Virus record (IMG/VR): IMGVR_UViG_3300027686_001029 | Length of the DNA: 64,000 nucleotides | Source of the DNA: a virus | Direction: 5' to 3' (one strand) | In this document: piece by piece, positions 25,390-39,518 of the stretch | How positions within the stretch are numbered: the first letter of the stretch is position 1 | Layout: each line of letters opens with the position of its first letter | Program-made: the position numbers and the translations under genes | The notes under the pieces: model-generated | Told to the model about the DNA's origin: nothing | What the model saw: the letters and a program-made list of their open reading frames with translations, nothing else | The model's database searches: none

Positions 25390-26295
25390 TTATTGACGTA
25401 GAGTTTTTCTAATACAAAACATTGGGTTAGTAAAAAACTCTGGTATTAGCATTTGGTGGGTTGCTCTAATAGGGTTAATATCTATTCCTCCTCTGCGGGT
25501 ATACAGACAAGCAACCATTAATTGTTCTGGTTTGAATCTTTCTGTTAAGTGAGAATAAATCATTTCGCATATCTCTTCATGAAAGTGACTTACTGTTCTA
25601 TGACTAACTATGTATTTAGCAAGAGATTCTGCGGTAGGTACTTCATCTCCTTTGATAAAGATAAATATATCTCCCCAATCTGGTTGATCAGTTACTCTAC
25701 AATTAGAACGTAATAAATTTGATCGAACCTTAAGTTCTCGAGCATCAATAGAACCTTCTAACTGATTAGCATCTGATTTAAATGCTGTAAAATCGATTGC
25801 ATCTAAATTAGCTAATTCTCCAATTTCTTCGAATTCTTCAGAAAAAGACAAGGTTTCCATTTCAAAATCAGAAGAATAGAAACTAACTGTAGTTATAGTA
25901 TCAAGTAGTTCATCTAAATCTCTCTTTATTCTTGCTTCAATTCCTGCGATGCAGTCTGCTGCATTGTCACCTATCTTAGTCATATTAAATGAATTAAGAT
26001 AAAGTTTAATCGATTTAGACTCAACGTGGTTTTCACTATCAGCCGGACATACTATTTTAACCATACCGGCAACAGGTTGACCTTTTGTAGTAATAGCAGA
26101 AACTTCATAAGCATTCCATGTATCTACACCTACGAATTCCTTACCTGTTAATCCATATCCTTCTCGATTAAGATATCTTGGTATCTTAACTAAAAGTTCT
26201 GGAGAGTAAGTATCTTTATAACCTGCTCCGCCTACAGTTCCTAAATGTTTGGATGCAATATCCTTTACTTGTTCGTAATTTTTAACTTCTGACAT
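25390..26295 (-). CDS. queF: NADPH-dependent preQ0 reductase (bimodular QueF)
   Basis: GVDTWNAYE, VESKSIKLYLNSF, SNCRVTDQPDWG, FHEEICE, YTRRGGIDINP. Confidence 0.93.
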   Translation of the reverse strand: MSEVKNYEQVKDIASKHLGTVGGAGYKDTYSPELLVKIPRYLNREGYGLTGKEFVGVDTWNAYEVSAITTKGQPVAGMVKIVCPADSENHVESKSIKLYLNSFNMTKIGDNAADCIAGIEARIKRDLDELLDTITTVSFYSSDFEMETLSFSEEFEEIGELANLDAIDFTAFKSDANQLEGSIDARELKVRSNLLRSNCRVTDQPDWGDIFIFIKGDEVPTAESLAKYIVSHRTVSHFHEEICEMIYSHLTERFKPEQLMVACLYTRRGGIDINPIRATHQMLIPEFFTNPMFCIRKTLRQ

Positions 26296-26297
26296 AA

Positions 26298-26669
26298 TTA
26301 TCCTTTAAATATTTGTTTTTTACCACCTTCGTATTGATAAGCGTGGCCATTCTCTACCAGTAGTTTATTTAATGAGGTTTCTTCTCCGTCGATATCAATA
26401 AAAATCTCAGCAAGTATTCGACCGTACTTCCCTTTACCGTAAGATTGAATAACAAACTTACCATCATTCATCTCCATATATTTCTCAGTAAATTTAGAAG
26501 CTTCTATACCTTTAGCTTTCTCTTCTAAATTTCTAGTTCTCTTTTCCCAAGTATCAACTCCTTTAAATCTTAATCTGGCTCTAACCCAAGTATCAAATCC
26601 TAGATCGATCATTACATCTGCTGTATCACCATCAACTACTCTTAATAATTTTGCTCCGTATTTATACAT
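26298..26669 (-). CDS. SNase/thermonuclease-family nuclease
   Basis: RVVDGDT, RFKGVDT.E, GKYGRILA. Confidence 0.85.
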   Translation of the reverse strand: MYKYGAKLLRVVDGDTADVMIDLGFDTWVRARLRFKGVDTWEKRTRNLEEKAKGIEASKFTEKYMEMNDGKFVIQSYGKGKYGRILAEIFIDIDGEETSLNKLLVENGHAYQYEGGKKQIFKG

Positions 26670-27183
26670 TTATAAAATTTAATATTTGCTCTACTCTTTG
26701 CATAGGAGAGCCAGTTATCGTCAAATAAGGTTGACGTACGTCTTCTAATACTGCTTTAAACTCTTCATCAATATCTACTCTCCACTTTTCATTTATACTT
26801 CTAACTCCATCATCTACAGAATCAAATTCTATAGGAAAATAAATATAATGAGTATACTCGTTTTTAATCCTATTCCAAGTAGCATCTATATATTTCCACG
26901 TCTCTTCTGATACGTTATCCATAAATCTTGTATATACTACAACATCCATAAAGCATCTATCGAGTACTTGATTATAAGGTTGTAATAAAGCTTCTAAATG
27001 AAAACAACTAATAGCTAATTGAGTAGCATCAGTTCCTTTTTCATTGATAGGAAAACCATAAGAACCTACCGTTCTAGTAGATTCGTTAACAAAGTCGTAC
27101 TTTGGTAATTTATTCTTTAGTAATTCATACACAGTAGTCTTACCTGTACTACTAGCTCCTACTAACGCAATTCTCTTTGTCAT
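26662..27183 (-). CDS. P-loop kinase/ATPase (AAA_28, NMP-kinase-like)
   Basis: GASSTGKTT, LDRCFMD, DGVRS. Confidence 0.8.
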   Translation of the reverse strand: MTKRIALVGASSTGKTTVYELLKNKLPKYDFVNESTRTVGSYGFPINEKGTDATQLAISCFHLEALLQPYNQVLDRCFMDVVVYTRFMDNVSEETWKYIDATWNRIKNEYTHYIYFPIEFDSVDDGVRSINEKWRVDIDEEFKAVLEDVRQPYLTITGSPMQRVEQILNFINV

Positions 27184-27215
27184 ACAACCTTTTTATTTAA
27201 TACAATATACGAACT

Positions 27216-27785
27216 TTATTTTTTATTACCGAATAATTCATTAGTAAATTCAATCCAAAGATATAGAGACCTATCTTTAAATACTTTCCACATCTCTTCT
27301 TCAGTTATACTAAATGCATTAAACCTAATTTCTTTTAGAACTTTTCCTTCATCTACTCCTTCTACTACTTTGTGTATTACACATCCCATAACTTCATGCT
27401 TAGCTTCAAAAGCTCTAATTTGAGGATCCTTTCCTTTTAATTCTGGGTAGACAGTTATTAGTCCTGGATGACCGTTAAATATGTTGAAGCTTTGAGTAAC
27501 TTCAGAAGGTAGAATTCTCAGCCAACCGTGTAATGTAATAATCGCATCTGGAAAATACTGAAGTACGTCTAGATATTCATTCACTTTAGGTTTATTACTA
27601 AAGGTAAAATATCCTTTTTCTTCTATTCTAGGATCTATAGTTCTAGCATCATTAGGTCTCTCATTAGTAATAATACGGGATGGCCACTTACCTGTGCTTT
27701 CAGCAAGATCAGCTATTTCTGCTCCTGTTTGAGAGAAAAAAGCAATCCAGGTTTGTTTGCCAGATTTAATTTTTATATCTTTCAT
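27216..27785 (-). CDS. PurN-like formyltransferase; probable dPreQ1 formyltransferase (DpdN-like)
   Basis: FSQTG, LHGWLRIL, NGHPG, IHKV..GVDEG; sits between a TGT-fold gene and queF. Confidence 0.75.
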   Translation of the reverse strand: MKDIKIKSGKQTWIAFFSQTGAEIADLAESTGKWPSRIITNERPNDARTIDPRIEEKGYFTFSNKPKVNEYLDVLQYFPDAIITLHGWLRILPSEVTQSFNIFNGHPGLITVYPELKGKDPQIRAFEAKHEVMGCVIHKVVEGVDEGKVLKEIRFNAFSITEEEMWKVFKDRSLYLWIEFTNELFGNKK

Positions 27786-28600
27786 ATTCCTGCTATAGGT
27801 GTTGATCCATTAACGAACCACCTAAATTTCTGTATATTATTTAATACGGTGGGTATTTCTATATCGTCAATATCTGTGTTAATAAGTTCGAATAACTTCT
27901 GCGATTCTTTACTCCATAAGCCATCAGATCCGTAAGTTATGTCTTTTAATCCGTGTACTACAGGATTTGAAGTATCTAAAGAGTATATCCAACTGTAGTC
28001 TAAATGTTTATAGTACGAAAATTCCTGGGGAAGTGAACATCCTAATAAGTGATGAGGTTTATCTTTATTAATAACACCGTCTCTAAGTAAATCTCCAAGT
28101 AGCTTAACACGTCCTAGCATCCAACTAACGTATTTATTAGGATGAGGAAAAGACTCAGTATAATACGAATAATCAAAGGATATAGCAATCATATCACAAG
28201 GTGATAATTCATCTATAGCTTTATAACAGTCTTTAATTTCCTGATAAGTCTTACCTTGAACCACCCCTATACTCTTACCCGGTACATTATTATACTTTTT
28301 AAACCAGCTAGCCATTTGCGACATAGTTTTTTCAGCATTTTCTAAAGCATCTGGTACTATATACCATGTAGGTTTAAGCAATTGTACCCAGTTAGAAAAC
28401 TTATCAGCATCAAAGGCTTCTTCTAATTCAAAAATAGAGTTGTCTAATATTACTTCTCTTCCTTTTCTTACTGCTTTTTCAAACTGCCTTAAGTATTCTG
28501 GATCTTCTTCTAGTAAATGTACTAATGCATAGTCATAATCAGTTAGTCTTTGAACTTCATCAAAAATACTATTCGGAGATTCATGAGCAATCTTAATCAT
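27782..28600 (-). CDS. TGT-fold guanine transglycosylase, DpdA-like (DpdA3-type candidate)
   Basis: TGT catalytic pattern ILDNS, VPD, VVQG, HLLG, SLDTS; short, no tRNA-binding Zn domain; inside the que cluster. Confidence 0.72.
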   Translation of the reverse strand: MIKIAHESPNSIFDEVQRLTDYDYALVHLLEEDPEYLRQFEKAVRKGREVILDNSIFELEEAFDADKFSNWVQLLKPTWYIVPDALENAEKTMSQMASWFKKYNNVPGKSIGVVQGKTYQEIKDCYKAIDELSPCDMIAISFDYSYYTESFPHPNKYVSWMLGRVKLLGDLLRDGVINKDKPHHLLGCSLPQEFSYYKHLDYSWIYSLDTSNPVVHGLKDITYGSDGLWSKESQKLFELINTDIDDIEIPTVLNNIQKFRWFVNGSTPIAGI

Positions 28601-28778
28601 CTTTATTAATTTCCTTTAAAGCGTTATTTAATAATTCTATTGAGCTATCTACTTTTAAAGCAGCATTATTAAGCTTAGCAGTATAATTGCTTACTTCTTT
28701 AATAGCTTTTTCAGCTATTTCTACTGGGATCATTTCTACTCCTTCTACTACTACGATATTTTCTTTCCATGTATTCAT
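28593..28778 (-). CDS. small coiled-coil protein
   Basis: translationally coupled on both sides. Confidence 0.55.
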   Translation of the reverse strand: MNTWKENIVVVEGVEMIPVEIAEKAIKEVSNYTAKLNNAALKVDSSIELLNNALKEINKDD

Positions 28779-29347
28779 ATCCCTAAGTGTTGCTGTGGTC
28801 TAGTTTTAACAATTTCATCATCTGTAAAGAATTGTTTAAGGTCCGGTCTGAAGTAGTTAGTGCTTTTCATTACTTTTCTATCTCTAGTACGGTAGACAAT
28901 ATACCGTCCTTCCTCAATCTTTTCAAAATGACAGGCCTCACCTTGTTCCTTACTTCTTTGGCGGACGGTCTGTATGGCTTCTTTTTCAGTTTCACAAGCT
29001 TTTGACATATTAGAGGCTTGTACTTCTTGATATGCTGGCCATATCTTGTTCTTAAGGCCATGTAGCATAGTACCGTTCCCAAGGGAAACATAAGTAATAT
29101 CGCACAAAGCATCCAAAATTTCCACAATGTCTCCTCTTTCGCAAGCTTCTTTATATTCTTGGAGCTCTTCAAGGATAAAGTCGTAAACAAATCTCCATTC
29201 TTTTTCACTAGGGATAGTTGGTTCATAGTTATTAGGTTTGTTAAACGTTTTGTTAAACTCTTCTACTTCATCTACGAAAGGAACTCCGTTAACCCATACG
29301 GGTAATACTTTTTCTTCTACTTCAAATAATGATAGTTGCTCACCCAT
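28775..29347 (-). CDS. MazG-like / PRA-PH NTP pyrophosphohydrolase
   Basis: V.EFNKTF, EELQEY, EILDALCDITYV, EVQASNMSK, KVMKS. Confidence 0.88.
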   Translation of the reverse strand: MGEQLSLFEVEEKVLPVWVNGVPFVDEVEEFNKTFNKPNNYEPTIPSEKEWRFVYDFILEELQEYKEACERGDIVEILDALCDITYVSLGNGTMLHGLKNKIWPAYQEVQASNMSKACETEKEAIQTVRQRSKEQGEACHFEKIEEGRYIVYRTRDRKVMKSTNYFRPDLKQFFTDDEIVKTRPQQHLGI

Positions 29348-29348
29348 A

Positions 29349-29549
29349 TTAGATTACTTTTAAAATTCTTGATTCTGTAAGGCTTATGATTCTGAAATCT
29401 CTTTCTCCTTCGTTTTCTAAGTACTTATAAACTTTAGATTCAGCTTCAGTACCGCCCATAGCGTCAACCAAATAAATTTCTTTTACTTTTTGAATACGAC
29501 CTCTATCGTTTTCTCTTTCAAACTGGGTAGTAACTTGCCAATATGTCAT
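29349..29549 (-). CDS. DUF4494-like protein
   Basis: KVKEIYLVDA...TEAE.K pattern of the Bacteroidota DUF4494 family. Confidence 0.6.
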   Translation of the reverse strand: MTYWQVTTQFERENDRGRIQKVKEIYLVDAMGGTEAESKVYKYLENEGERDFRIISLTESRILKVI

Positions 29550-29602
29550 AATAATGCTTTTTTAATTTAATTTAATATACGATTAATTTTACTTCTATAC
29601 AA

Positions 29603-29971
29603 CTATTCTCTATTATAGTCATCTTCATATCTGATTATGTCTGATTCATCAAATATACCTGCATTACTATGCTGCACTTCAATAAAAATCATATCTTTGT
29701 TATCCTGTACGTTATTAATATTTCTTATTCTATGTTTAGCTCCTTCTGGTATATAAACAGTATTCTTCTCCGTCAAAACACTATCTGAGCCATCTAAAGT
29801 ATATCCTGCCATTCCCTGTACTATAGTCCAAGTCTCTGATCTATGTTTATGAGATTGATAGGATAGTTGTCCGCCAGGTTTAACTGTAATCATTTTTACC
29901 TTACAAAAAGGACTATCAAGTAAAACTTGATACTCCCCCCAAGGTCTTATATCATGTTCTAATGTCTGCAT
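29603..29971 (-). CDS. mannose-6-phosphate isomerase type II cupin (ManC C-terminal-like)
   Basis: RPWGEY, LSYQSHKHRSETW, HRIRN, IEVQ, DIIRYED.Y.R. Confidence 0.88.
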   Translation of the reverse strand: MQTLEHDIRPWGEYQVLLDSPFCKVKMITVKPGGQLSYQSHKHRSETWTIVQGMAGYTLDGSDSVLTEKNTVYIPEGAKHRIRNINNVQDNKDMIFIEVQHSNAGIFDESDIIRYEDDYNRE

Positions 29972-30672
29972 ATACTTGCTAATTCTATATTCTTATAAAA
30001 CTCTGCTTTTGCAGAATCCTCATCTAAAAATGCTCCTGTTAACTTAGCTGTCTGCATTGAAGCTCCTTGATGCTTTACTCCTCTACAGCTTACACAGTTA
30101 TGAGTAGCATTAATTTGAACTGCTACTCCTAAATTACCATCACAAATTTTATTAACAGCATTATGTATGGCAACTGTTAATTGTTCTTGAATGGCTCCTC
30201 TTCTTCCAAATTGTTCTACTATTCTATTTAATTTGGATAATCCAACAACCTTCCCAGACTCTGAAGCAATATAGGCTATGCTAACAGTCCCACCTATTGT
30301 TTGGTGGTGGTGACTACACATTGACGTTACAGGTATATTAGACTCTTGTACGATTCCGTCGTAGCCGTCGCTAGGGAATGCTGTAACTCGGTCTAAAGGT
30401 TCAAATCTACCTTTCCATAGATCATTAACGTATGCTTTAGCTACTCTCATAGGAGTATCAGAAGAGTTGGGATCGTTTTCCCAGTCAGTTCCAAGAGCGG
30501 TTAAGAAGTCACCAAATGCTGTTGCTGCATTAGTAATAATCTCTTGTTTCTCTTCTGATGATAACCTTGCTTCAGGTCCTTCGGTTAGTTGTTTCTTTGC
30601 TAATTGACTGGATATACCATTAGCGAATCCAGCTTGAACTAATTCTGTTCCTTCTATAAACTTCTTTGCCAT
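29959..30672 (-). CDS. folE: GTP cyclohydrolase I
   Basis: TPMRVAK, SMCSHHH, GLSKLNRIV, IQEQLT, HNCVSCRG. Confidence 0.95.
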   Translation of the reverse strand: MAKKFIEGTELVQAGFANGISSQLAKKQLTEGPEARLSSEEKQEIITNAATAFGDFLTALGTDWENDPNSSDTPMRVAKAYVNDLWKGRFEPLDRVTAFPSDGYDGIVQESNIPVTSMCSHHHQTIGGTVSIAYIASESGKVVGLSKLNRIVEQFGRRGAIQEQLTVAIHNAVNKICDGNLGVAVQINATHNCVSCRGVKHQGASMQTAKLTGAFLDEDSAKAEFYKNIELASICRH

Positions 30673-30705
30673 TCTTATAACTTATTTATACTTAAATATA
30701 CGATT

Positions 30706-31110
30706 TTATTTTGTAGTATCCAAATAACCTTGTATGGTTTTTGAATCTTTTTTTTCCCAAGGGTAAACTATCCATTCAGGTCCTATATGCTGTGCAAAAT
30801 AATCTGGTTTAAATGTAGATTGTTTTTTATAATGAAGTGTTGCATATAAAGGTTGGGGGAACTTATACTGAAACTGTTTTAAAGTTTCTCCTGTATCAGC
30901 TATATCATCAAGTACTAATAGGCTTGGATAATGATTGCTTGGGTTTTCCATATACTCAATTCCGAACCTATGTGAGTAGAGTATTGCTAAAATCGTACCT
31001 CCTCTTGGTACTCCTGTAACGTATCCTACCTGTCCTTTTGTCTGTTGGTATATATTATCTAGAAGGGAGTTTATATCTTCCCACGTTAAAAAAACTTTCT
31101 TTACGCTCAT
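30706..31110 (-). CDS. type I phosphoribosyltransferase (Gpt/Hpt-like); start probably 31110
   Basis: GVPRGG, LVLDDIADTGETL, WIVYPWE; ATGA overlap with upstream small ORF. Confidence 0.85.
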   Translation of the reverse strand: MSVKKVFLTWEDINSLLDNIYQQTKGQVGYVTGVPRGGTILAILYSHRFGIEYMENPSNHYPSLLVLDDIADTGETLKQFQYKFPQPLYATLHYKKQSTFKPDYFAQHIGPEWIVYPWEKKDSKTIQGYLDTTK

Positions 31111-31241
31111 ACAATATTTGTTGTCCAAAACTGGTTATCGATTATATAACTCTGATCTTTACTTTTCCAGTATAATTCTCTTACTTTACTTCCTAATTCT
31201 TGATCGTTAGGATTTTCTTCTACTAATTTATTAAGGTTCAT
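31107..31241 (-). CDS. 44-aa protein (not in ORF track)
   Basis: hand translation MNLNKLVEENPNDQELGSKVRELYWK...; coupled to both neighbours. Confidence 0.55.
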   Translation of the reverse strand: MNLNKLVEENPNDQELGSKVRELYWKSKDQSYIIDNQFWTTNIV

Positions 31242-31542
31242 AATTTAATCCAAAAAATTTATAATTGTTTTTAACTGCTTCTAATTCTCCTGCTTCTATT
31301 GCATCTTCTTCTGTTTCGTATATAGCCTCAACTGGGCATTCTGGAATACAGGCTCCGCAATCTATACATTCGTCTGGGTTAATATATAGGCTTTTGCCTA
31401 TCAATTGCTCTTTAGTCATATTCGCAACTTCTGCTCCTGCACCTTCAATATCTATAGGACCATGTATACAATCTACAGGACAAACAGCAACACAAGCTGT
31501 ATCACATGTACTAATACAGGGACTTCCTATAATGTAGCTCAT
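31231..31542 (-). CDS. ferredoxin (dicluster, FdxA-like)
   Basis: CISTCDTACVAVCPVDCI and CIDCGACIPECPVEAI. Confidence 0.92.
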   Translation of the reverse strand: MSYIIGSPCISTCDTACVAVCPVDCIHGPIDIEGAGAEVANMTKEQLIGKSLYINPDECIDCGACIPECPVEAIYETEEDAIEAGELEAVKNNYKFFGLNYEP

Positions 31543-31775
31543 AAAGTAACTTTTTTCATAAATTTGTTTACAGCATCTGTAGAGGATGTTCCGGTTGCTA
31601 TATCCTCTGTAACTATTAGAGCACCATATAGGTTAGACATTATCTCCCCAATCACGTCTAGTTCTTCACTAGTAACTTTTCTTGCTTCTGAGATGTCTTC
31701 TAATACCTTTAAAGTAATATTAATTTCATCTTCGTTAGAAGTTTTTACGATTTGTTTAATTACTTGTAGTTTCAT
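31539..31775 (-). CDS. DUF6952-like protein
   Basis: MKLQVIK...EELDVIGEIMSNLYGAL...NKFMK, resembles a Flavobacteria family. Confidence 0.55.
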   Translation of the reverse strand: MKLQVIKQIVKTSNEDEINITLKVLEDISEARKVTSEELDVIGEIMSNLYGALIVTEDIATGTSSTDAVNKFMKKVTL

Positions 31776-31793
31776 TATAAGTTATTTATTAGG

Positions 31794-32573
31794 TTATACT
31801 TCTCTTTGATCCTCAAATGCTATAATATGTGGTCTCCAAGTCATCCTATATCCATTATCTCTAACCCAATCAAATAGTACCGGGTAAGATTTAAATAAAG
31901 CTTCTCTTGAATCTCCACTTGGCATAAACCAGACTTTATCCTGAGGTACTTCTAAAATACCTATGCATTCTAATATCTCCTGTAATGCGAAATCATCCTT
32001 TCCGTCCCATACAGGTTTAATATGGTAGTCTGAGTGGTAAGCAATACTTTTCTTCATTGCATCATAATTAAGCCTAAACTTATTATGCTGTTTAATCATC
32101 CTTTCGTCAGTAATCTTACCTTGTGGTGTTGCCACTCCAAGTACAGGTACCGAATTAGAGAACTTGGGACTGATCGAAAGCAGATTGATAGGATAATCCG
32201 TAGGTACAAAATGACTACCTTCATTCTCCATTGTAATAAAAATATTTTTTTCATTTGCAAAATGTGTTAGTTCATTAACCAGTTTACCATGCATAGAAGG
32301 TGAACCTCCTGTAAGCATCATTTCTTTTATATGAGGATTTTTCTCATATGCTTTAATAATGTCATTAAAGTTATATTGACCTTTATCTGGATGTATTGAT
32401 GTATACCAGCTATCACACCAGCCACCTTCTCCAAAATAACATCTGTGAGTACATCCTGTGGTTCTAATTACTACTGTAGGGTACCCTGCTCTTGATCCTT
32501 CAGATTGAACAGCAGTATATATCTCTACAATAGGTAAATTCTTATCATAATCTACTACTCTACCTAGGCTCAT
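31794..32573 (-). CDS. queE: 7-carboxy-7-deazaguanine synthase (radical SAM)
   Basis: EIYTAVQSEGSRAG.P.V.IRTTGCTHRC...WCDS, LTGGSP, SPK, PHI. Confidence 0.93.
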   Translation of the reverse strand: MSLGRVVDYDKNLPIVEIYTAVQSEGSRAGYPTVVIRTTGCTHRCYFGEGGWCDSWYTSIHPDKGQYNFNDIIKAYEKNPHIKEMMLTGGSPSMHGKLVNELTHFANEKNIFITMENEGSHFVPTDYPINLLSISPKFSNSVPVLGVATPQGKITDERMIKQHNKFRLNYDAMKKSIAYHSDYHIKPVWDGKDDFALQEILECIGILEVPQDKVWFMPSGDSREALFKSYPVLFDWVRDNGYRMTWRPHIIAFEDQREV

Positions 32574-33027
32574 ATGTTGCTGTATTTTTAGCGTGTTCTC
32601 TAAATTCTACTTTTGATATTTTTACTCTTCCTTCAGTTTCTGCCTCAATAAAAGGATTTAATTTATCAAATATAAACTGTGAAAATCTTTCTCCTCCTGT
32701 TGCTGGTATTACTCTTATTTGAGCTACACCTGCATCATCCATTTTTTTAAATGATTCTAAGAAAGGATCATCTTCGGCTACTATAAAAGTATGGTCAAAC
32801 ATATAGTCCATCCACTCTTTAGCAGACATACCATCAATCTTCCCTTTCGCCCTTTTCATTCCTCCGAAATCCCATACCCAGTTTCTTTCGTCTAAATCTC
32901 CTTCAAACCAAATTTTAAAAGAAATACCGTAACCGTGTAAAAACCTACAGTGAGTAGTTTCAGCTTTCCATTGTCTAAAGACTGTACTGAATCCTTCAAA
33001 TACTTTTGTTGATTTAAATTTACTCAT
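32560..33027 (-). CDS. queD: 6-carboxy-5,6,7,8-tetrahydropterin synthase; start probably 33027
   Basis: CRFLHGY, WVWDFGG, FDHT, EHAKN. Confidence 0.9.
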   Translation of the reverse strand: MSKFKSTKVFEGFSTVFRQWKAETTHCRFLHGYGISFKIWFEGDLDERNWVWDFGGMKRAKGKIDGMSAKEWMDYMFDHTFIVAEDDPFLESFKKMDDAGVAQIRVIPATGGERFSQFIFDKLNPFIEAETEGRVKISKVEFREHAKNTATYEPR

Positions 33028-33184
33028 GCTTACAACTTTTTTTATGATTAAACATTCCTCCACATTTACATTTTATATATGTAACTGCTGCCAATACCAT
33101 TGGACTTCCTGCTAGTAAGGTAAGTGCGTTAGGATGCCAATGATCCCCGCAAATGCCTACTGCGTGCTTTAAAATTTCTATCAT
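33020..33184 (-). CDS. 54-aa Cys/His-rich protein (not in ORF track)
   Basis: hand translation MIEILKHAVGICGDHWHPNALTLL...CKCGGMFNHKKSCKHE; overlaps both neighbours. Confidence 0.6.
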   Translation of the reverse strand: MIEILKHAVGICGDHWHPNALTLLAGSPMVLAAVTYIKCKCGGMFNHKKSCKHE

Positions 33185-33444
33185 ACTAATTCCTCTATTA
33201 TACCAATTACTTCAGAAACAATTAAAACACTAGCTGCTGCTAATAAGTTAATAGGTATAAGTATATAACCAAATATACGAATTCCTGACTTAATAAACGA
33301 CACTATCTGGTGTTTTTTTGCGTCTGGGTAGTTAATAAAGGAGTCTGGTAAAGGGTTTGAGTTTTGTCTGTTGAGTAGATACTCTTCGTTTGTAACTCTT
33401 CTTGACTCTACATCGTAGAGTTCTTTTTCAATTATACTATTCAT
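33181..33444 (-). CDS. hypothetical protein with C-terminal TM
   Basis: HQIVSFIKSGIRIFGY...EVIGIIEELV. Confidence 0.6.
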   Translation of the reverse strand: MNSIIEKELYDVESRRVTNEEYLLNRQNSNPLPDSFINYPDAKKHQIVSFIKSGIRIFGYILIPINLLAAASVLIVSEVIGIIEELV

Positions 33445-33504
33445 ATTTCGTGTTTTTAAAGTGGTGCTGTGACACTATGTCTTATATTTATATTACAATA
33501 TAAG

Positions 33505-33534
33505 AAGAAAAAGGGTAGTAAACAACTACCCCTT
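33505..33534 (-). terminator. rho-independent terminator overlapping the next promoter
   Basis: GGGTAGT-TGTTT-ACTACCC then TTTTTC. Confidence 0.8.
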
Positions 33535-33542
33535 AGTTTATT

Positions 33543-34436
33543 TTAATATAAAGCATTCCAAGTTGAACCGTTATAAAAATACGGTTTAATTGGACTACTT
33601 GATGATACTGCGAATGCTCCGGCTGCTAATCCTGCAGATGGAAGAGGATGTTGTGGCTGTAATGTTAATACGTTAGATGCACTTACGAAAAGTGATGCTG
33701 ATAGTGGGTATACAGCATTAATATGACCATTATCCTGTATAGTTAGTCTAACAGTTGATCCATATGCTCCTGTTTCTTGAGTTGCAAATGTTATCTTAGC
33801 TCCTGAAGAGCTTACTGCTGATTTTGTTACAGTTCCTGTAATTTGTACAGGTTCAGAATAATCTGTCCAAGTTAGAGCGTTACCTGTTCTTGTAGAACCT
33901 GAGTTTACTACTCTTCCTGCTATTCTAAATATATTATCGCCTACTAGTGCGGGTGATTCAGCTCCTGGTACACCTCTTGATTTTATAAATACAAAGTTTC
34001 CTGCTGACTGGTCAGTTGAAGCTTGGTCAATCCAAATCTCAGATCTATAATTTTTTAACCCAATTTTAGCCGGGTACCAGTGATGTTGTCCTATCTCTAC
34101 AGATCCTGTAATAGATAAACTACCTGTGTGGTTTATTTTTCCTCTAATTAACTGCTCACCTATAAACGTATTACTACTAGTTAGTGCGTATTTCGCATTA
34201 TTAACATAAGATGCGGTAGTTGCGGTAGTTGCTTTTGTAGATACAGATGATGATAGTGCAGTAACAATAGAAGTTAGCCCAGATCCGTCTCCAACAAATG
34301 ATCCTGAGAATGATCCTGTAAGGTTATTGAAAGATGCAGAAAGTGCATTTCCAAGTCCATCTTCAAATCTATTATTAGTCCACTGTACTACTTTTCCGTA
34401 GGTATCCTTTATTTTACTTCCTGTTAAATTTGCCAT
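33543..34436 (-). CDS. Ser/Thr/Gly-rich virion fibre-like protein
   Basis: TGSFSGSFVGDGSGLT repeats, beta-rich, C-terminal YFYNGSTWNAL; late-type motif upstream and terminator downstream. Confidence 0.55.
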   Translation of the reverse strand: MANLTGSKIKDTYGKVVQWTNNRFEDGLGNALSASFNNLTGSFSGSFVGDGSGLTSIVTALSSSVSTKATTATTASYVNNAKYALTSSNTFIGEQLIRGKINHTGSLSITGSVEIGQHHWYPAKIGLKNYRSEIWIDQASTDQSAGNFVFIKSRGVPGAESPALVGDNIFRIAGRVVNSGSTRTGNALTWTDYSEPVQITGTVTKSAVSSSGAKITFATQETGAYGSTVRLTIQDNGHINAVYPLSASLFVSASNVLTLQPQHPLPSAGLAAGAFAVSSSSPIKPYFYNGSTWNALY

Positions 34437-34462
34437 GAGTATACTGTATAAAAATAAATAGG

Positions 34463-34579
34463 TTAAAAATTCTTATAGGTGAAAGGATCTCTCTTTTTCA
34501 TTTCAGCTATCCTTTTTTCAAAGTTCTTTTCTCTTTTTCTATTAGCAAAGTATGCTTTTATCTTCTGAATCAAGTTCAT
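34463..34579 (-). CDS. 38-aa basic peptide (not in ORF track)
   Basis: hand translation MNLIQKIKAYFANRKREKNFEKRIAEMKKRDPFTYKNF. Confidence 0.5.
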   Translation of the reverse strand: MNLIQKIKAYFANRKREKNFEKRIAEMKKRDPFTYKNF

Positions 34580-35207
34580 ATATTTGTTTTTTAGTGAAAA
34601 ACTTAGGTTTTATATTATTTAGTAGTAAAGAAAAAGCTATTCCCATACCTTCACCATTGCCCCTATGGTTATAAATAGACTTCTCAAACATACTATTGTA
34701 CTCTATTATAGGTTTAAGTACCTCTATATACTTAGTAACATTTCTCAACCTACTGTCGTAAGGGATGTAAAATACGGTTTCTAGTAATGGTCTTAATAAA
34801 TTTATAGGGAAATCTGCAAGTTTTAAGTAGTCTGTTAATTTGTCCCAATAGGAACCATTTATATCTGTATCTTTCCATATAGAATTGCCGTAGTCCCAGT
34901 ACCCTACAAAACAATAATCGTCACTTCCTTTAAAATGCTGGTGGAAGTCTGGTGTCATTGCATGTATTTTATTAGCATCAACAAAAAGTACTCCTTGTTT
35001 TTCTTTTAACGCTAATTGAAATGCATATATCAACTTATCGTAGTATGAAAATATAATATTATTATAGGTTGTAGTATCGTATTCCTTGAACCGTTCGGGA
35101 TCATCGGTTAACACTCTAATATCGTATATTTTTCTATCTAATATCTTTAATAGTTTTTCAGCTGATTCTGTATACGGTTTATTTATTGCAGTTGTAGCTA
35201 AAATCAT
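34542..35207 (-). CDS. hypothetical protein, possibly GT-A-like
   Basis: RVLTDDP, VLFVDA; coupled to the carbamoyltransferase. Confidence 0.45.
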   Translation of the reverse strand: MILATTAINKPYTESAEKLLKILDRKIYDIRVLTDDPERFKEYDTTTYNNIIFSYYDKLIYAFQLALKEKQGVLFVDANKIHAMTPDFHQHFKGSDDYCFVGYWDYGNSIWKDTDINGSYWDKLTDYLKLADFPINLLRPLLETVFYIPYDSRLRNVTKYIEVLKPIIEYNSMFEKSIYNHRGNGEGMGIAFSLLLNNIKPKFFTKKQIYELDSEDKSILC

Positions 35208-36865
35208 GTTTTTCTGATTAAAAAGTTACCTATAACTAAAAAATTAATTTTAGAAGATATAAACCTCTCTATTGCCTGTTTTGGAGTCATCGTAATAGTT
35301 TGGTCTTTTAGGTTAAAAGATGTATTAAGTACTACTGCTTTATTTGATAACCTACCTACTTGTTTAATAAGGTCATAATATCTTTTATTTTGAGCTTGTG
35401 TTACAGTGTGTACTCTACAGCTACCGTCTATATGTGTTGCTGCAGGTAGGTATTTAGTTTTAGCTTGTACTACTTGATTCATATAGGGAATATTCTCTTT
35501 CACGTGGAACCACATGGAGGCCTCTTCCTCTATAACAGACGGAGCAAAGGGTCTAAATCCTTCTCGTTCTTTAATAATAAGGTTGAGTCTTTGTCTCATT
35601 TCTGGATCTGATGGAGAGGCTAGGATACTTCTATTACCTAAAGCTCTAGCTCCAAATTCCATTCTACCTTGGAACCATGCTACTATATTTTGATTATTAA
35701 TTAACTCAGCAGTTTTTTGAATTAATTTTGAATCAGATAGTTTAAATGCCTGAATATGCTCTTTATAGTTCTGTATCTCTTTGGAAATTTCTTTATTACT
35801 GTATTCTGGTCCTAAGAATGGATTTGAATTTTCTTCCCTTTTTAACTCCGTTGAAATATTACTAAAGCAAGCTCCAATTGCTGATCCAGCATCTGATGGA
35901 GCATTAGGGATATGGATAGACTTAAAGTACTTATAAGCAAGTGTATTAGCTACACCATTATACGCACAGCCTCCTCCTAAACATAAGTTATTTGATTTAG
36001 TTAAGTATTTTGTTCTTTCTACAAGTTTTAAAAACTGTATCTCATATATTTTTTGTAATGCTGCTGCTAAATCTTTATGTTCTTGAGTAACTTTTTCTTC
36101 AGGTAATCTAGGAGGTAGATCTAAAAGTGAAGCTAGTTTTTTATTAAACATAATTTTATCTGAGTATTCCCATGTAAAGTACTTCTGTTTAATATAGAAT
36201 TTATTAGTAGTATTTTCAAATACACTAGCTAACTTCTCTTTATACCTGCTTGGGTCTCCATAAGGTGCTAATCCCATAACTTTATACTCGCCTTCATTAG
36301 GTTTAAAGCCTAGAAACGAAGTAATAGTTGAGTAAAACATACCTAGTGAATTAGGGAAATCAATTGAAACTTTCTTTTCTATTCTATTACCTATACCTAA
36401 TGATACAGTAGCTGTTTCCCATTCTCCTACTCCATCAATAGTTAAAATTGCTGAATCAATATAAGGAGAGGTATAGTAACTATAAGCAGCATGAGAAGCA
36501 TGGTGAGGAGTATATACAATCTCTCCGGTGAATCCCATATTCTGTAAAAGCAACTTAATATCGTGTATTTTTTGCTCTTTAAGAAACTTTCGTCTTTGAA
36601 AATACGTCCTAAAAAATTTCTTATTAAACGTAGTAAGTACTCTATCTTTTTTAATAATTGGGTCTTCATACCAGCATACTTGATCTATATCTTTTATGGT
36701 TAGTCCTTCTTCTTCTAAACAGAAGTTTATAGCATTAATTGGGAAAGATAAGTCATGTTTAATTTCAGTAAATCTTTCTTCCTCTACTGCTACTTTGACT
36801 TTTCCGTCAATTAGTATACAAGCTGCAGCGTCGTGATAAAATGCGGATATTCCTAATTGCTTCAT
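35204..36865 (-). CDS. carbamoyltransferase (NodU/CmcH/TobZ family)
   Basis: FYHDAAA, EEERF, HHASHAA, IDGVGE, EGEYKVMGLAPYG, GRMEFGARALGNRS, REGFRPFAP, LNTSFN. Confidence 0.95.
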   Translation of the reverse strand: MKQLGISAFYHDAAACILIDGKVKVAVEEERFTEIKHDLSFPINAINFCLEEEGLTIKDIDQVCWYEDPIIKKDRVLTTFNKKFFRTYFQRRKFLKEQKIHDIKLLLQNMGFTGEIVYTPHHASHAAYSYYTSPYIDSAILTIDGVGEWETATVSLGIGNRIEKKVSIDFPNSLGMFYSTITSFLGFKPNEGEYKVMGLAPYGDPSRYKEKLASVFENTTNKFYIKQKYFTWEYSDKIMFNKKLASLLDLPPRLPEEKVTQEHKDLAAALQKIYEIQFLKLVERTKYLTKSNNLCLGGGCAYNGVANTLAYKYFKSIHIPNAPSDAGSAIGACFSNISTELKREENSNPFLGPEYSNKEISKEIQNYKEHIQAFKLSDSKLIQKTAELINNQNIVAWFQGRMEFGARALGNRSILASPSDPEMRQRLNLIIKEREGFRPFAPSVIEEEASMWFHVKENIPYMNQVVQAKTKYLPAATHIDGSCRVHTVTQAQNKRYYDLIKQVGRLSNKAVVLNTSFNLKDQTITMTPKQAIERFISSKINFLVIGNFLIRKT

Positions 36866-37905
36866 AACAGTTCTGAGAAATTATTGTGAACTTTATCTTG
36901 TGGTAAAATTCTTTTTATAGTATTAACGAAATCTTCATGGTTTCTATGGGAAGTATCAAATATATTATGCTCTTTAAATTCTTCTTCACTAAAAGTACCC
37001 CAATTAATAAGTCTACTAAAGTAAATATCCGATTTTTCTTTACATATACCAACTATTAGCTCAATAAAGTCTTCCATTTCATGATAATTACTATTTTGCA
37101 CAACAAAAGAGGTTTTTATATGTTTTAAGGTAGGAATGGTGTATATATAGTTTAAATTACTTATAAGTTCTTTCCATTTTCCTCCTAACCTTACTTTATT
37201 TTCATAAGTATTTTGAGTAGCTGCATCAATTGATACCTCAGTGCTCTTTACGTATTCATGTACGTTAGACATACTATTCCACATTTTTTTATTCCACTTA
37301 GTAGCGTTAGTATGAAGGTGTATCCAGTAGAGATTTGGATACTTACTTTTATCGAAGTTCTTTAAGAAGTTTCTAAATCCTACTGATACGAAAGGATCAC
37401 CGGTTCCTGTTAAAGACAGTAGTTGTACGTACTCTCCTAAACTCTCTTCTATCTCTTCTATAGTCTTTTGTACTTTAGTTATAGTTGACTTATTAGCAGT
37501 AATAATTTCCACTCTGCAGGTAGGGCATTTTAAATTGCAGGTATAATCAAAGGAATATTGAACCGTATTAGGGTATATAGGTTTACCTTGTTTATAGTCG
37601 TTAATTGTATTTTGTAAAGTATCAGGTAGCTTCCCTCTGTCTACCATTGGACGGATCACTTTAGGTGCAGTTTTGTCTCTTAAGCCGGAAAGTAGTGAAC
37701 AAAGATTTTCATCACAGTACCTATAAGAACCATCGAGAATAGAATCTCGAATTTCATTCGCTTCTTTAGAGTTCCAAGCTTCTAATGGTGATATGTTTTC
37801 TGGTAATTTTTTGCTAACCCAAGCAGGGCAACATAAAAAACTTGTTTTATCATGGACTTCTAAATTTACGAAAGGATTTGCACATATATAATCCTTTTTA
37901 TTCAT
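36862..37905 (-). CDS. radical SAM protein with N-terminal auxiliary Cys cluster
   Basis: CNLKCPTC, TGTGDPF, VSIDAA; N-terminal C..PF...CC...YC...C. Confidence 0.85.
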   Translation of the reverse strand: MNKKDYICANPFVNLEVHDKTSFLCCPAWVSKKLPENISPLEAWNSKEANEIRDSILDGSYRYCDENLCSLLSGLRDKTAPKVIRPMVDRGKLPDTLQNTINDYKQGKPIYPNTVQYSFDYTCNLKCPTCRVEIITANKSTITKVQKTIEEIEESLGEYVQLLSLTGTGDPFVSVGFRNFLKNFDKSKYPNLYWIHLHTNATKWNKKMWNSMSNVHEYVKSTEVSIDAATQNTYENKVRLGGKWKELISNLNYIYTIPTLKHIKTSFVVQNSNYHEMEDFIELIVGICKEKSDIYFSRLINWGTFSEEEFKEHNIFDTSHRNHEDFVNTIKRILPQDKVHNNFSELL

Positions 37906-38674
37906 GTATAAAGTATAAATCTTTACTTATAAATAACTTTATATAGTCATTTAAATCTTTTTGTTTAAAATGAGTTTCAAATTTTGCGTTAGATACTAAA
38001 GGCTCATACTTCTTAATATAAGCCTCTAGCGTTGTACCTTGATTTAAAAAATAATGCATTACAGGCGTTTCATCGCTTACTATTTCAATATCTTCTTCTT
38101 GATTTATTCTAATAAATTCCTCAGCTATGCTTAGATCTGAGCAGTATACAAAGGATGTGTTAGGAACTACTACGTTGTTTGCCCATTGCCAATTATATTT
38201 CTGGAGTACAGATTGGTGTTTATGTAAGTATTTTATATCTTCCCTGCTTATATCTTTCCATTCTTTAAGAACATACTCTTCGTAGTTATTAGGAAAACAA
38301 TAAAGAGGTATTTGAAGTTTACTGTTTTGCTCTTCTAACCTACTATAAAAATTAAAATCAAGTGGTTTCTGTTGGTAAATATCCCAGTCAAGAAATATAA
38401 TTTGTTCGTATAGCTCTACTCCAGTCTTTATAGCTACAAGCTTATGCAGGAAAAAAGTATGTGATTCATAGAAGTAGTGTGTTCCGTACTCATAAGGATC
38501 TTTAGACATTAATATAGCTTCATACCCAAAAGATTTAATAAAATCATAATTGCTTTCGCCCCATACGAACACTACTTCATCAAATCTTTGTTCTTTAGAG
38601 CATCTTATAATTTCTTTTCTTGGTTTACTATCATGATGTTCTAAATCTCCCCATAGGGCTCTAATAAATTTCAT
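37898..38674 (-). CDS. hypothetical protein, possibly GT-A-like
   Basis: HKL.AI...IIFLDWDI (DxD), PNTSFVY. Confidence 0.5.
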   Translation of the reverse strand: MKFIRALWGDLEHHDSKPRKEIIRCSKEQRFDEVVFVWGESNYDFIKSFGYEAILMSKDPYEYGTHYFYESHTFFLHKLVAIKTGVELYEQIIFLDWDIYQQKPLDFNFYSRLEEQNSKLQIPLYCFPNNYEEYVLKEWKDISREDIKYLHKHQSVLQKYNWQWANNVVVPNTSFVYCSDLSIAEEFIRINQEEDIEIVSDETPVMHYFLNQGTTLEAYIKKYEPLVSNAKFETHFKQKDLNDYIKLFISKDLYFIHE

Positions 38675-38702
38675 ATGATAGATTTAAGTATTTCCCAATA
38701 AT

Positions 38703-39518
38703 TTAAGAATAACCTAATTCTGCAGCAGTACTGTAGTCGACTAGTATTTTTTCTACATGTGCTTTCGCAACATTATAATCAACCGGTCCAGTTTCGTTCT
38801 CGTACTGTACAGGGTCATCCACACCGAGTGCGATAAAAGCTTCAATCCTTTCAACAGATGATGCTGATTTGTAATCGCTATTACCGCTAGGATAGGGCTT
38901 ATAAGAAGTATTAGTACGTTTGTACACTTCATTAAAAACAATTCCGAGCTCTTCAACCAATTGTTGTCCATCTTTTAATATTCCAAATTTGTCTGTTTCT
39001 AAATAAGGTGTAAAATACCCTACCTTATCTGCTTCCCAATTACCTAATCTAAAGGCATTGTCATCTGCATCTCTAAACTCTTGTCTACAGTCTGGATATA
39101 CTGCATGATCACCTGCATGTATACCTAATGCAATATCTGTATTATTACCATTAGCCATTGCTTCTGATAGAGCTACTGCTTGTACTAACGAAGCAAATAT
39201 TTTGTTTCTATTAGGTACTACTGTAGCTTTCATGTTATCCTGTTCATAATGACCTTCAGGTACATCTGCTCCTCCTTCAGTAAGTGCTGAATTTAGTAAG
39301 TTTACTAATCCGTCTAGTTTAATTACCTGGTACTTGATACCAAAATCTTTCTCATTTAGGTAATCTACTAACGATTGTGCTCTTTCAAGCTCTACTTTAT
39401 GCTTTTGACCGTAATCGAAAGATATTGCAGTTACATTGTCATACTCTGATAAACATCTGAGTAGTAAAGTAGAGGAATCCATCCCTCCCGATAAGGATAT
39501 TACAACATTTTTTGCCAT
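38703..39518 (-). CDS. queC: 7-cyano-7-deazaguanine synthase
   Basis: SLSGGMDSSTL, FDYGQKH, TVVPNRNKIF, HAGDHAVYPDCRQEF. Confidence 0.92.
   Translation of the reverse strand: MAKNVVISLSGGMDSSTLLLRCLSEYDNVTAISFDYGQKHKVELERAQSLVDYLNEKDFGIKYQVIKLDGLVNLLNSALTEGGADVPEGHYEQDNMKATVVPNRNKIFASLVQAVALSEAMANGNNTDIALGIHAGDHAVYPDCRQEFRDADDNAFRLGNWEADKVGYFTPYLETDKFGILKDGQQLVEELGIVFNEVYKRTNTSYKPYPSGNSDYKSASSVERIEAFIALGVDDPVQYENETGPVDYNVAKAHVEKILVDYSTAAELGYS

Follow-up and report, generated by a model that had tools for sequence, protein, structure and literature searches.

An uncultured phage with an immuto-type DpdA3/DpdN gene set and a predicted deazaguanine in place of guanine

Closest described systems and the predicted modification

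The closest described counterpart of the gene set analysed here belongs to phage vB_FspM_immuto_2-6A of Flavobacterium (MW353175; Cui et al. 2023, NAR 51:9214, PMC10516641; hereafter immuto). Its DNA gives no dG peak in liquid chromatography coupled to mass spectrometry (LC-MS), contains 345,000 residues of 7-(formylamino)methyl-7-deazaguanine (fdPreQ1) per 10^6 nucleotides and resists restriction at G-containing sites, and its formyltransferase DpdN was predicted from gene neighbourhood only (Cui et al. 2023, PMC10516641). Two further phages combine a transglycosylase of the DpdA3 subfamily with complete G replacement, namely Campylobacter phage CP220, with 2'-deoxy-7-amido-7-deazaguanosine (dADG), and Cellulophaga phage phiST, with 2'-deoxy-7-deazaguanosine (dDG). 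The locus described here occupies positions 25390-39518 of a 64,000-nucleotide stretch (the window), which is the reverse strand of 99555-163554 in the 177,020-bp IMG/VR virus record IMGVR_UViG_3300027686_001029, rated 100% complete by CheckV. It represents an uncultured marine member of the immuto-type DpdA3/DpdN system, a system that is itself already known. All coordinates are window positions unless a locus name precedes them.

Genes were called from Pfam and NCBIfam profile matches and some PHROG matches. By these matches and by orthology to immuto, all five enzymes of the preQ1 pathway (FolE, QueD, QueE, QueC, QueF) are present, and DpdA3 and DpdN complete the set common to both phages. 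Cui et al. base their group 1 on the co-occurrence of DpdN with DpdA and the full FolE-to-QueF set, and this genome encodes that combination. QueE is 80% identical to its immuto ortholog and 71% to that of phiST. QueF is 62% identical to immuto QueF and keeps the ESKSIKLY motif and the SNCRVT..QPDWGD cysteine region. The accessory genes shared with immuto encode a phosphoribosyltransferase (PRT), a DUF4494 protein, a nucleoside triphosphate (NTP) pyrophosphohydrolase and an AAA_28 protein ('thymidylate kinase'). The common order is QueD-QueE-..-PRT-FolE-DUF4494-NTP-PPase-..-DpdA-DpdN-kinase-QueF-..-PolA, and protein identities to the immuto orthologs range from 47 to 80%. Among GenBank phages, nucleotide similarity is confined to the three Flavobacterium 'immuto' phages, to which 11% of the core region aligns at 79%. 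The genomes differ in size (177 kb here, 160 kb in immuto) and in the interval between queC and queD, where immuto has a 423-amino-acid (aa) ThyA and a tRNA cluster, whereas this phage has a cassette in that place and a single tRNA-Met. A staphylococcal-nuclease-like (SNase) gene, a cupin gene and a UDP-sugar-dehydrogenase-like gene are likewise found here and not in immuto. The pathways of CP220 and phiST stop at 7-carboxy-7-deazaguanine (CDG; PMC10516641), and QueF and DpdN lie outside their route, unlike in the present phage.

From its genes, this phage is predicted to carry fdPreQ1 in place of dG, with a probability of about 0.75. GTP would be converted to the free base preQ0 by FolE, QueD, QueE and QueC, and QueF would reduce preQ0 to preQ1 (7-aminomethyl-7-deazaguanine). 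DpdA3 would then swap guanine for the deazaguanine base by a double displacement of the tRNA-guanine transglycosylase (TGT) type, and DpdN would formylate the exocyclic aminomethyl nitrogen, presumably from 10-formyl-tetrahydrofolate. The expected outcome is fdPreQ1 at all or nearly all G positions and a genome shielded from restriction enzymes; the order of insertion and formylation, and whether DpdA3 acts on DNA or on a nucleotide, can only be inferred. Palindromes containing G or C are not depleted relative to those of A and T only (median observed/expected 0.94-0.97 versus 0.93-1.04), which is compatible with a protected genome and has no diagnostic value. The original prediction took it as established that DpdA3, DpdN and QueF accompany fdPreQ1 with near-complete G replacement in immuto. 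The fdPreQ1, the missing dG peak and the restriction resistance reported in PMC10516641 show that premise to be accurate. The same base in the present phage, which that prediction also inferred, is supported by orthology, collinearity and the intact catalytic residues of DpdA3 and DpdN, with fdPreQ1 itself remaining predicted.

Several points weigh against this assignment. The phage is known from metagenomes only, and its product is read from genes alone. DpdA3 activity could not be reconstituted in Escherichia coli (Cui et al. 2023, PMC10516641). Within the module, conservation is lowest for DpdN (47% identity to immuto), and its activity as a preQ1 or dPreQ1 formyltransferase, on base, nucleotide or DNA, is only predicted, in immuto as well. 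Three biosynthetic enzymes score below their NCBIfam equivalog cut-offs (QueF 233 versus 293 bits, QueC 140 versus 150 and QueE 52 versus 206), and their assignment rests on orthology to phage genes (62-80% identity to immuto). Finally, enzymes absent from immuto (a carbamoyltransferase, a radical SAM protein, two glycosyltransferase (GT)-like proteins, the cupin and the UDP-sugar-dehydrogenase-like protein) could in principle alter the final base.

Every gene between 21 and 43 kb of the window lies on the minus strand. Listed in transcriptional order, the features are QueC, a 5.5-kb cassette, QueD, QueE, DUF6952, a 4Fe-4S ferredoxin, a purine-PRT-like protein and FolE, followed by a small cupin, DUF4494, a MazG-like protein of the PRA-PH family, a 61-aa open reading frame (ORF), the TGT-fold gene, the PurN paralog, AAA_28, SNase and QueF. 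Past QueF, a nucleotide-sugar-dehydrogenase-like gene in truncated form is followed by two small ORFs, the tRNA-Met gene and the gene for DNA polymerase A. Thus queC, queD, queE, folE, queF, the TGT-fold gene and the adjacent PurN-like gene, all seven of those first listed for 25390-39518, are in place on the minus strand. The claim of a complete pathway holds for the gene content and fails for a single compact pathway, as the cassette splits queC from queD. Interleaved with the pathway are conserved genes that the first listing had passed over (purine-PRT-like, MazG-like, AAA_28 kinase-like, SNase, cupin, ferredoxin, DUF6952 and DUF4494). Counts out of 80 given here and below refer to the first 80 IMG/VR relatives examined, in which QueD occurs 59 times. 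The ferredoxin and DUF6952 genes lie directly downstream of queE, and the pair is a possible electron donor for the radical-SAM enzyme QueE.

Table 1. Features of the locus, in window positions, with the profile match or remark for each
Feature	Positions	Strand	Match or remark
Nucleotide-sugar-dehydrogenase-like ORF, 274 aa	24562-25386	-	TIGR03026, positions 69-298 of 413 only
QueF, bimodular NADPH-dependent preQ0 reductase (to preQ1)	25390-26295	-	QueF_N 1e-28 and QueF 4e-18
SNase, staphylococcal-nuclease-like, accessory	26298-26669	-	Pfam SNase 2e-10
AAA_28 P-loop protein, nucleoside/nucleotide-kinase fold	26662-27183	-	Pfam AAA_28 2.3e-16
DpdN, PurN-like formyltransferase	27216-27785	-	Formyl_trans_N 8e-12; start overlaps dpdA stop by 4 nt
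DpdA3-type 7-deazaguanine transglycosylase	27782-28600	-	272 aa, pI 5.0, minimal TGT TIM barrel
MazG-like all-alpha NTP pyrophosphohydrolase (PRA-PH family)	28775-29347	-	Pfam PRA-PH 4.6e-11
Small cupin, ManC/phosphomannose isomerase C-terminal type	29603-29971	-	Pfam MannoseP_isomer 8.5e-26
FolE, GTP cyclohydrolase I	29959-30672	-	Pfam 3.6e-42; NCBIfam FolE 2e-41
Purine (6-oxopurine) PRT-like protein	30706-31128	-	NCBIfam xanthine PRT 2.6e-9
4Fe-4S dicluster ferredoxin	31231-31542	-	Pfam Fer4 families ~2e-9; NCBIfam FdxA 5e-20
DUF6952 protein	31539-31775	-	Pfam DUF6952 2.5e-20
QueE, radical-SAM 7-carboxy-7-deazaguanine synthase	31794-32573	-	NCBIfam QueE 7.5e-14, under cut-offs
QueD, 6-carboxytetrahydropterin synthase	32560-33063	-	Pfam PTPS 8.9e-15; overlaps queE start
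Variable island	33181-38674	-	GT-like u258, twitch radical SAM, NodU-type carbamoyltransferase, GT-like u221, fibre-like u297, u87 (Pfam, NCBIfam, PHROG)
u297 (within the island)	33543-34436	-	Ser/Thr/Gly-rich, fibre-like
u258, radical SAM, carbamoyltransferase and u221 (within the island)	34542-38674	-	overlap start-to-stop by 4-8 nt
QueC, preQ0 (7-cyano-7-deazaguanine) synthase	38703-39518	-	Pfam QueC 6.5e-40; 65.5% identity to immuto QueC

The dpdA3-dpdN-queF block

The product of the TGT-fold gene has no Pfam or NCBIfam match, and a PDB sequence search was empty at E ≤ 10. Comparison with the founding members of DpdA3 (phiST CGPG_00065, the Campylobacter phage homologs and immuto DpdA) showed 74% identity to immuto DpdA3 and 41% to CP220 gp056 (E 6e-57), and a 60-sequence family profile matched phiST gp042 (hhalign 99%, E 5e-18). 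These matches supply the DpdA-subfamily placement that the original prediction had proposed as a check. An AlphaFold2 (AF2) model built with diverse homologs reached a predicted local distance difference test (pLDDT) of 95.7 and a predicted TM-score (pTM) of 0.92. The top 50 Foldseek matches of this model are all tRNA-guanine transglycosylases (E 1.5e-7, TM 0.6), and an all-against-all VIA structural search ranked highest archaeal TGT (ArcTGT; Z 17.9, rmsd 3.0 over 235 aa), the DNA preQ0 insertase DpdA of bacteria (7ui4; Z 17.0) and bacterial TGT (Z 16.2), with generic TIM barrels at Z ≤ 15.4. At the sequence level the family gave a weak hhalign match to a single E. coli Tgt sequence (probability 11%) and a sub-significant family-profile match in the PDB to DpdA 7ui4 (E 0.12), which was used solely for motif alignment. 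By sequence and by model, the protein is assigned to the DpdA3 subfamily.

The bacterial Dpd system (DpdA/DpdB/DpdC of Salmonella Montevideo, PDB 7ui4) also exchanges guanine for a 7-deazaguanine in DNA and shares the TGT-type TIM barrel and the HLLG...(S/T)xD nucleophile motif. In the HMMER alignment of the HLLG...SLD motif, D209 corresponds to Asp256, the nucleophile of bacterial DpdA (bDpdA), and L186 to Leu236 (residue roles from PMC10164549). The segment D53-N-S-I-F57 mirrors the Asp95/Phe99 spacing, and D84 with GVVQG lies at the place of TGT base recognition; the D53 and D84 equivalences are by motif and strand position, not by residue-level structural alignment. D53 is invariant in the 60-sequence alignment, and conservation is at least 90% for D84 and D209. 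Asp209 is accordingly the predicted nucleophile, with Asp53 as predicted acid/base and Asp84 in predicted base recognition, and the catalytic residues are intact. The two systems differ in build. bDpdA has 436 aa with the large DNA-associated insertion Ins8, needs the ParB-like ATPase DpdB and modifies less than 0.1% of G (PMC10516641, PMC10164549), whereas DpdA3 is a 272-aa minimal barrel with no room for Ins8 or for the TGT zinc subdomain. The annotated interval shows no DpdB gene, and the whole genome was not searched for one; DpdA3 is linked instead to a P-loop protein of kinase fold.

An alternative reading is that these genes do not serve phage DNA, either because they supply preQ1 or queuosine precursors for host tRNA or because the TGT-fold protein itself acts on tRNA. 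This idea was put forward by Hutinet et al. 2019 for phages that have preQ0 genes and no DpdA, but here the TGT-fold gene is orthologous to DpdA3 of immuto, whose DNA has been shown chemically to be modified. The tRNA-TGT Pfam model misses this protein, the length of which leaves no zinc/tRNA-binding subdomain, and DpdN plays no part in queuosine synthesis. The absence of queA, first noted for the window, extends to all 177,020 bp of the genome. Neither canonical Tgt (PF01702) nor QueA (PF02547) has a match there at E ≤ 1, while both models detected their targets in control genomes, so the genome lacks the Tgt and QueA members of the tRNA queuosine pathway, and its sole tRNA is tRNA-Met. This alternative is very improbable in either form.

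DpdN is 47% identical to its immuto counterpart, and its catalytic half aligns to glycinamide ribonucleotide (GAR) transformylases at NxHP(S/G)L and VHxVxExxDxG. The Asn-His-Asp triad of PurN (N104, H106 and D145 in DpdN) is invariant in 75 homologs, as are the family-specific motifs FSQxGxEI, LHGxLR and YPxLKGKDPQ.

Relatives of this DpdA3 are encoded in at least 581 IMG/VR stretches, from which 59 non-redundant loci with at least 3.5 kb downstream of dpdA were taken for synteny. QueF is present in 58 of these, and DpdN and the AAA_28 gene in 54 each. The three are found jointly in 50, and the order is always dpdA-dpdN-P-loop-queF, down to 50% DpdA identity. None of the 54 loci with DpdN lacks QueF. 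A search of 1.8 billion cluster representatives gave 1,540 DpdA3-related clusters, among which are natural fusions of an N-terminal DpdA3 to a C-terminal DpdN (P0045 and P0123; 447 aa) and, in a search of longer proteins, to a C-terminal QueF (P0151-P0153; 531-568 aa). Both kinds of fusion add independent evidence for a joint action of transglycosylase, preQ0 reductase and formyltransferase. Two other representatives depart from the minimal barrel, P0006 (586 aa) with a 317-aa N-terminal extension before DpdA3 and P0005 with a NUMOD3 motif past the barrel.

Some close relatives lack DpdN. In L012 (6123-7079) and L014 (10331-11287) the AAA_28 kinase-like protein (318 aa) has a C-terminal extension with a weak GNAT match (E 0.002, below cut-off), a call to which PDB sequences gave no support. 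In L076 (2841-7422) a radical SAM gene precedes dpdA, and after dpdA come genes for a NUMOD3 homing endonuclease, an HAD+GNAT protein of 508 aa (4e-11) and a protein of the glyoxalase fold; L110 (10001-12093) has only dpdA, kinase and queF. These four loci are predicted to lead to dPreQ1 or to undescribed N-acyl-preQ1 derivatives.

Nucleotide-metabolism partners and the route of replacement

The P-loop protein of the block has a nucleoside/nucleotide-kinase fold. Its AF2 model (pLDDT 91.8) matched the NadR ribosylnicotinamide-kinase domain (Z 17.5 and 16.3) and human deoxyguanosine kinase (Z 15.6) in the VIA search, with further structural matches to thymidylate kinases and deoxynucleoside kinases (dNK). 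An AAA_28 homolog, gp057 (30% identity, hhalign 99.9%), directly follows DpdA3 in CP220, where an HD-plus-AAA_33 protein (gp055) precedes DpdA3. The order in phiST is FolE, MazG (gp039), gp040, an AAA_18 P-loop protein, DpdA3 and polymerase. The AAA_18 protein, gp041, was considered as an AAA_28 homolog and rejected, its likeness stopping at Walker A. The MazG-like gene is found in 78 of the 80 close relatives and has counterparts near DpdA3 in MazG gp039 of phiST and the HD domain of CP220 gp055. The PRT-like protein, encoded in 67 of the 80, matches the PDB purine PRTs 1vdm and 4trb at 2e-7 and has the phosphoribosyl pyrophosphate (PRPP) motif. In each of the three DpdA3 lineages with known chemistry, where G replacement is complete, DpdA3 is accompanied by a small P-loop protein of kinase type and by an NTP pyrophosphohydrolase. 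Kinases, PRTs and a pre-replicative route are not discussed by Cui et al. 2023 (PMC10516641).

The proposed roles are depletion of the dGTP pool by the MazG-like protein, phosphorylation by the kinase-fold protein and salvage of guanine to GMP/GTP by the PRT. The PRT-like enzyme seems well placed to recycle guanine freed by base exchange, whichever the route. These partners suggest a second reading with the same final product, in which the DpdA3 module acts at least partly on nucleosides or nucleotides before replication. The MazG-like protein would remove dGTP and may supply dGMP. Base exchange by DpdA3 would take place at the deoxynucleoside or deoxynucleotide stage, or alternatively the PRT would build a ribonucleotide for the phage ribonucleotide reductase (RNR). 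The kinase-fold protein would phosphorylate the product, the phage PolA would incorporate the modified dNTP and the PRT would recycle the released guanine. That DpdA3-type modules are not purely post-replicative, a nucleoside- or nucleotide-level step handing the polymerase a modified dGTP analogue, is a tentative suggestion and on balance unlikely.

Gene position is one argument for a pre-replicative step. The kinase-fold P-loop gene lies inside the dpdA3-dpdN-queF block in 54 of the 59 loci, an AAA_28 homolog flanks DpdA3 in the very distant CP220, a non-homologous P-loop protein (AAA_18) does so in phiST, and all three lineages encode MazG or HD NTP pyrophosphohydrolases close by. The kinase of L012 and L014 carries, as a fusion, the C-terminal domain with the weak GNAT match. 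A fusion of DpdA3 to the kinase, however, was not found among the 150 best representatives, and in the more divergent loci MazG was detected by tblastn in only 12 of 49 and PRT in 8 of 49. Alternatively, the P-loop protein could be a dNMP kinase of the ordinary kind, or it could help DpdA3 at the expense of ATP, by analogy with DpdB, although its modelled fold is that of a small-molecule kinase and not of ParB.

Replacement of G is complete in all three tested DpdA3 phages, while other DpdA subfamilies reach at most about 30% (PMC10516641), and the acidic DpdA3 (pI 5.0) has, at 272 aa, no space for the insertion or zinc subdomain named above. The ADG nucleoside was observed in infected cells (PMC10516641), and PMC6884629 cites an earlier proposal of a modified-dGTP route for Campylobacter phages. 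Against this, every characterised enzyme of the TGT superfamily uses polynucleotides as substrate, and Cui et al. 2023 (PMC10516641), finding DpdA in every modified phage, take modification to be post-replicative. A remote DpdA3-like gene in a Longispora chromosome adjoins an HhH-GPD DNA glycosylase gene, which points to chemistry at the DNA level.

The Longispora sp. ORF (L153:3912-8729, on a 686-kb contig) is 28% identical over 188 aa and is preceded by a radical SAM protein, a thymidylate-kinase/AAA_28-like P-loop protein, an FAD oxidoreductase and the HhH-GPD DNA glycosylase-family protein; these genes may form a bacterial cluster for DNA modification or repair that is as yet uncharacterised. 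Phages with Z-genomes (2-aminoadenine; PurZ/MazZ/DatZ; see PMC8342488) offer an analogy only. They too combine complete purine replacement with biosynthesis genes linked to a MazG-like and/or HD dNTP hydrolase and a polymerase, but that pathway is proven to be pre-replicative and has no transglycosylase, whereas here the transglycosylase is the signature enzyme. If a nucleotide-level step were true, it would explain why 100% replacement is reached by DpdA3 phages only, and DpdA3 would be the first enzyme of the TGT superfamily with a mononucleotide or nucleoside as its substrate.

The queC-queD cassette, accessory genes and wider occurrence

The overlapping frames of u258, the radical SAM gene, the carbamoyltransferase gene and u221 give these four genes the look of a single operon with translational coupling. 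The radical SAM protein matches the NCBIfam 'N-terminal twitch radical SAM' model NF033640 (9e-21, below cut-off). Among the 80 relatives the carbamoyltransferase is encoded in 19, the radical SAM protein in 3 and u258 and u297 in none; where the carbamoyltransferase occurs elsewhere, its partners include subtilase, sulfotransferase-like and fibre-like proteins. Its closest phage homologs are 'Nol-like' proteins of cyanophages and pelagiphages (27-32% identity), phages without deazaguanine genes. u258 and u221 belong to virus-only families with Atlas leads to GT8 and GT6. The fibre-like u297 gene sits inside a region of early and replication genes, and relatives encode 366-557-aa proteins just after the carbamoyltransferase that share only their first 40-80 residues with u297 and then diverge. 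Such a pattern, constant at the N-terminus and variable at the C-terminus, is that of receptor-binding or decoration proteins, and a fibre glycosylated through the adjoining GT-like genes and the carbamoyltransferase is conceivable. The cassette is probably a glycan or surface island unrelated to the pathway.

A role of the cassette in DNA modification is improbable, and so is the wider reading in which the final base is not fdPreQ1 and a different or further-elaborated deazaguanine, or a second DNA modification, arises through the extra enzymes (the NodU-type carbamoyltransferase, the twitch radical SAM protein, the two GT-A-like proteins, the cupin and the sugar-dehydrogenase-like protein). 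The four overlapping genes do sit between queC and queD, and in the 19 relatives with a carbamoyltransferase at this position it is often just upstream of u87-queD. One phage carbamoyltransferase, that of 5-hydroxymethylcytosine (5hmC), is a proven DNA modifier, with a Pfam co-occurrence set that includes PRA-PH (MetaGPA, eLife 2021, PMC8670742). Genome-wide searches found no ThyA (by PF00303 or as a homolog of immuto ThyA), ThyX or dCMP deaminase. There is therefore no hydroxymethyl-pyrimidine acceptor, and the 5hmC carbamoyltransferase reading was rejected; the carbamoyltransferase stands alone here, without the ThyA-type dCMP hydroxymethylase with which that system pairs it. Carbamoyltransferases of this family target hydroxyl groups, of which fdPreQ1 has none, and the variability of the island, the partner genes suggestive of surface or glycan biology and the 'Nol-like' kinship all speak against a further base. 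The slot beside dpdA3 does vary, with a solid GNAT match instead of DpdN in L076 and the weak GNAT-like kinase fusion in L012 and L014, but in the present phage DpdN is intact and, over its 75 homologs, under purifying selection. For the further modified base that the original prediction had offered as an option, no positive support was found, and fdPreQ1 is kept as the predicted product.

The remaining accessory genes are less regular. In 24 of the 80 relatives the cupin gene lies in the interval from folE to the MazG-like gene, and its membership of the pathway is uncertain; in phiST (L134:3897-4328) a cupin gene is located about 2 kb upstream of queD. The SNase gene keeps its position between the kinase-like gene and queF in 16 of the 80, and an enzyme that degrades host DNA while sparing modified DNA would fit this place. 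The nucleotide-sugar-dehydrogenase-like ORF has neither the N-terminal Rossmann start nor the C-terminal domain of its family and may be a remnant or a truncated form. It is not at this position in the 80 relatives, and a match to UDP-glucose dehydrogenase (UGDH)-like proteins is found upstream of dpdA in L104.

Among marine and sponge metagenomes, 14 DNA runs from seven studies contain DNA near-identical to a 7.7-kb stretch of the module, at 97-98% of sampled words; some of these runs may be the source sample. Contigs from marine metatranscriptomes of three studies match pieces of the module without mismatches, a weak hint of expression, as contigs from RNA libraries cannot prove transcription.

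If the prediction holds, fdPreQ1 hypermodification, which is rare and known chemically from one cultured phage lineage, extends to a large group of uncultured phages. Such DNA resists many restriction enzymes, and these phages therefore matter for host-range ecology. The four-gene block, the fusions and a kinase-fold partner common to the Campylobacter phages give concrete handles on how DpdA3 phages replace every G, and the GNAT-type acyltransferases in the DpdN slot of relatives predict deazaguanine derivatives not yet described.

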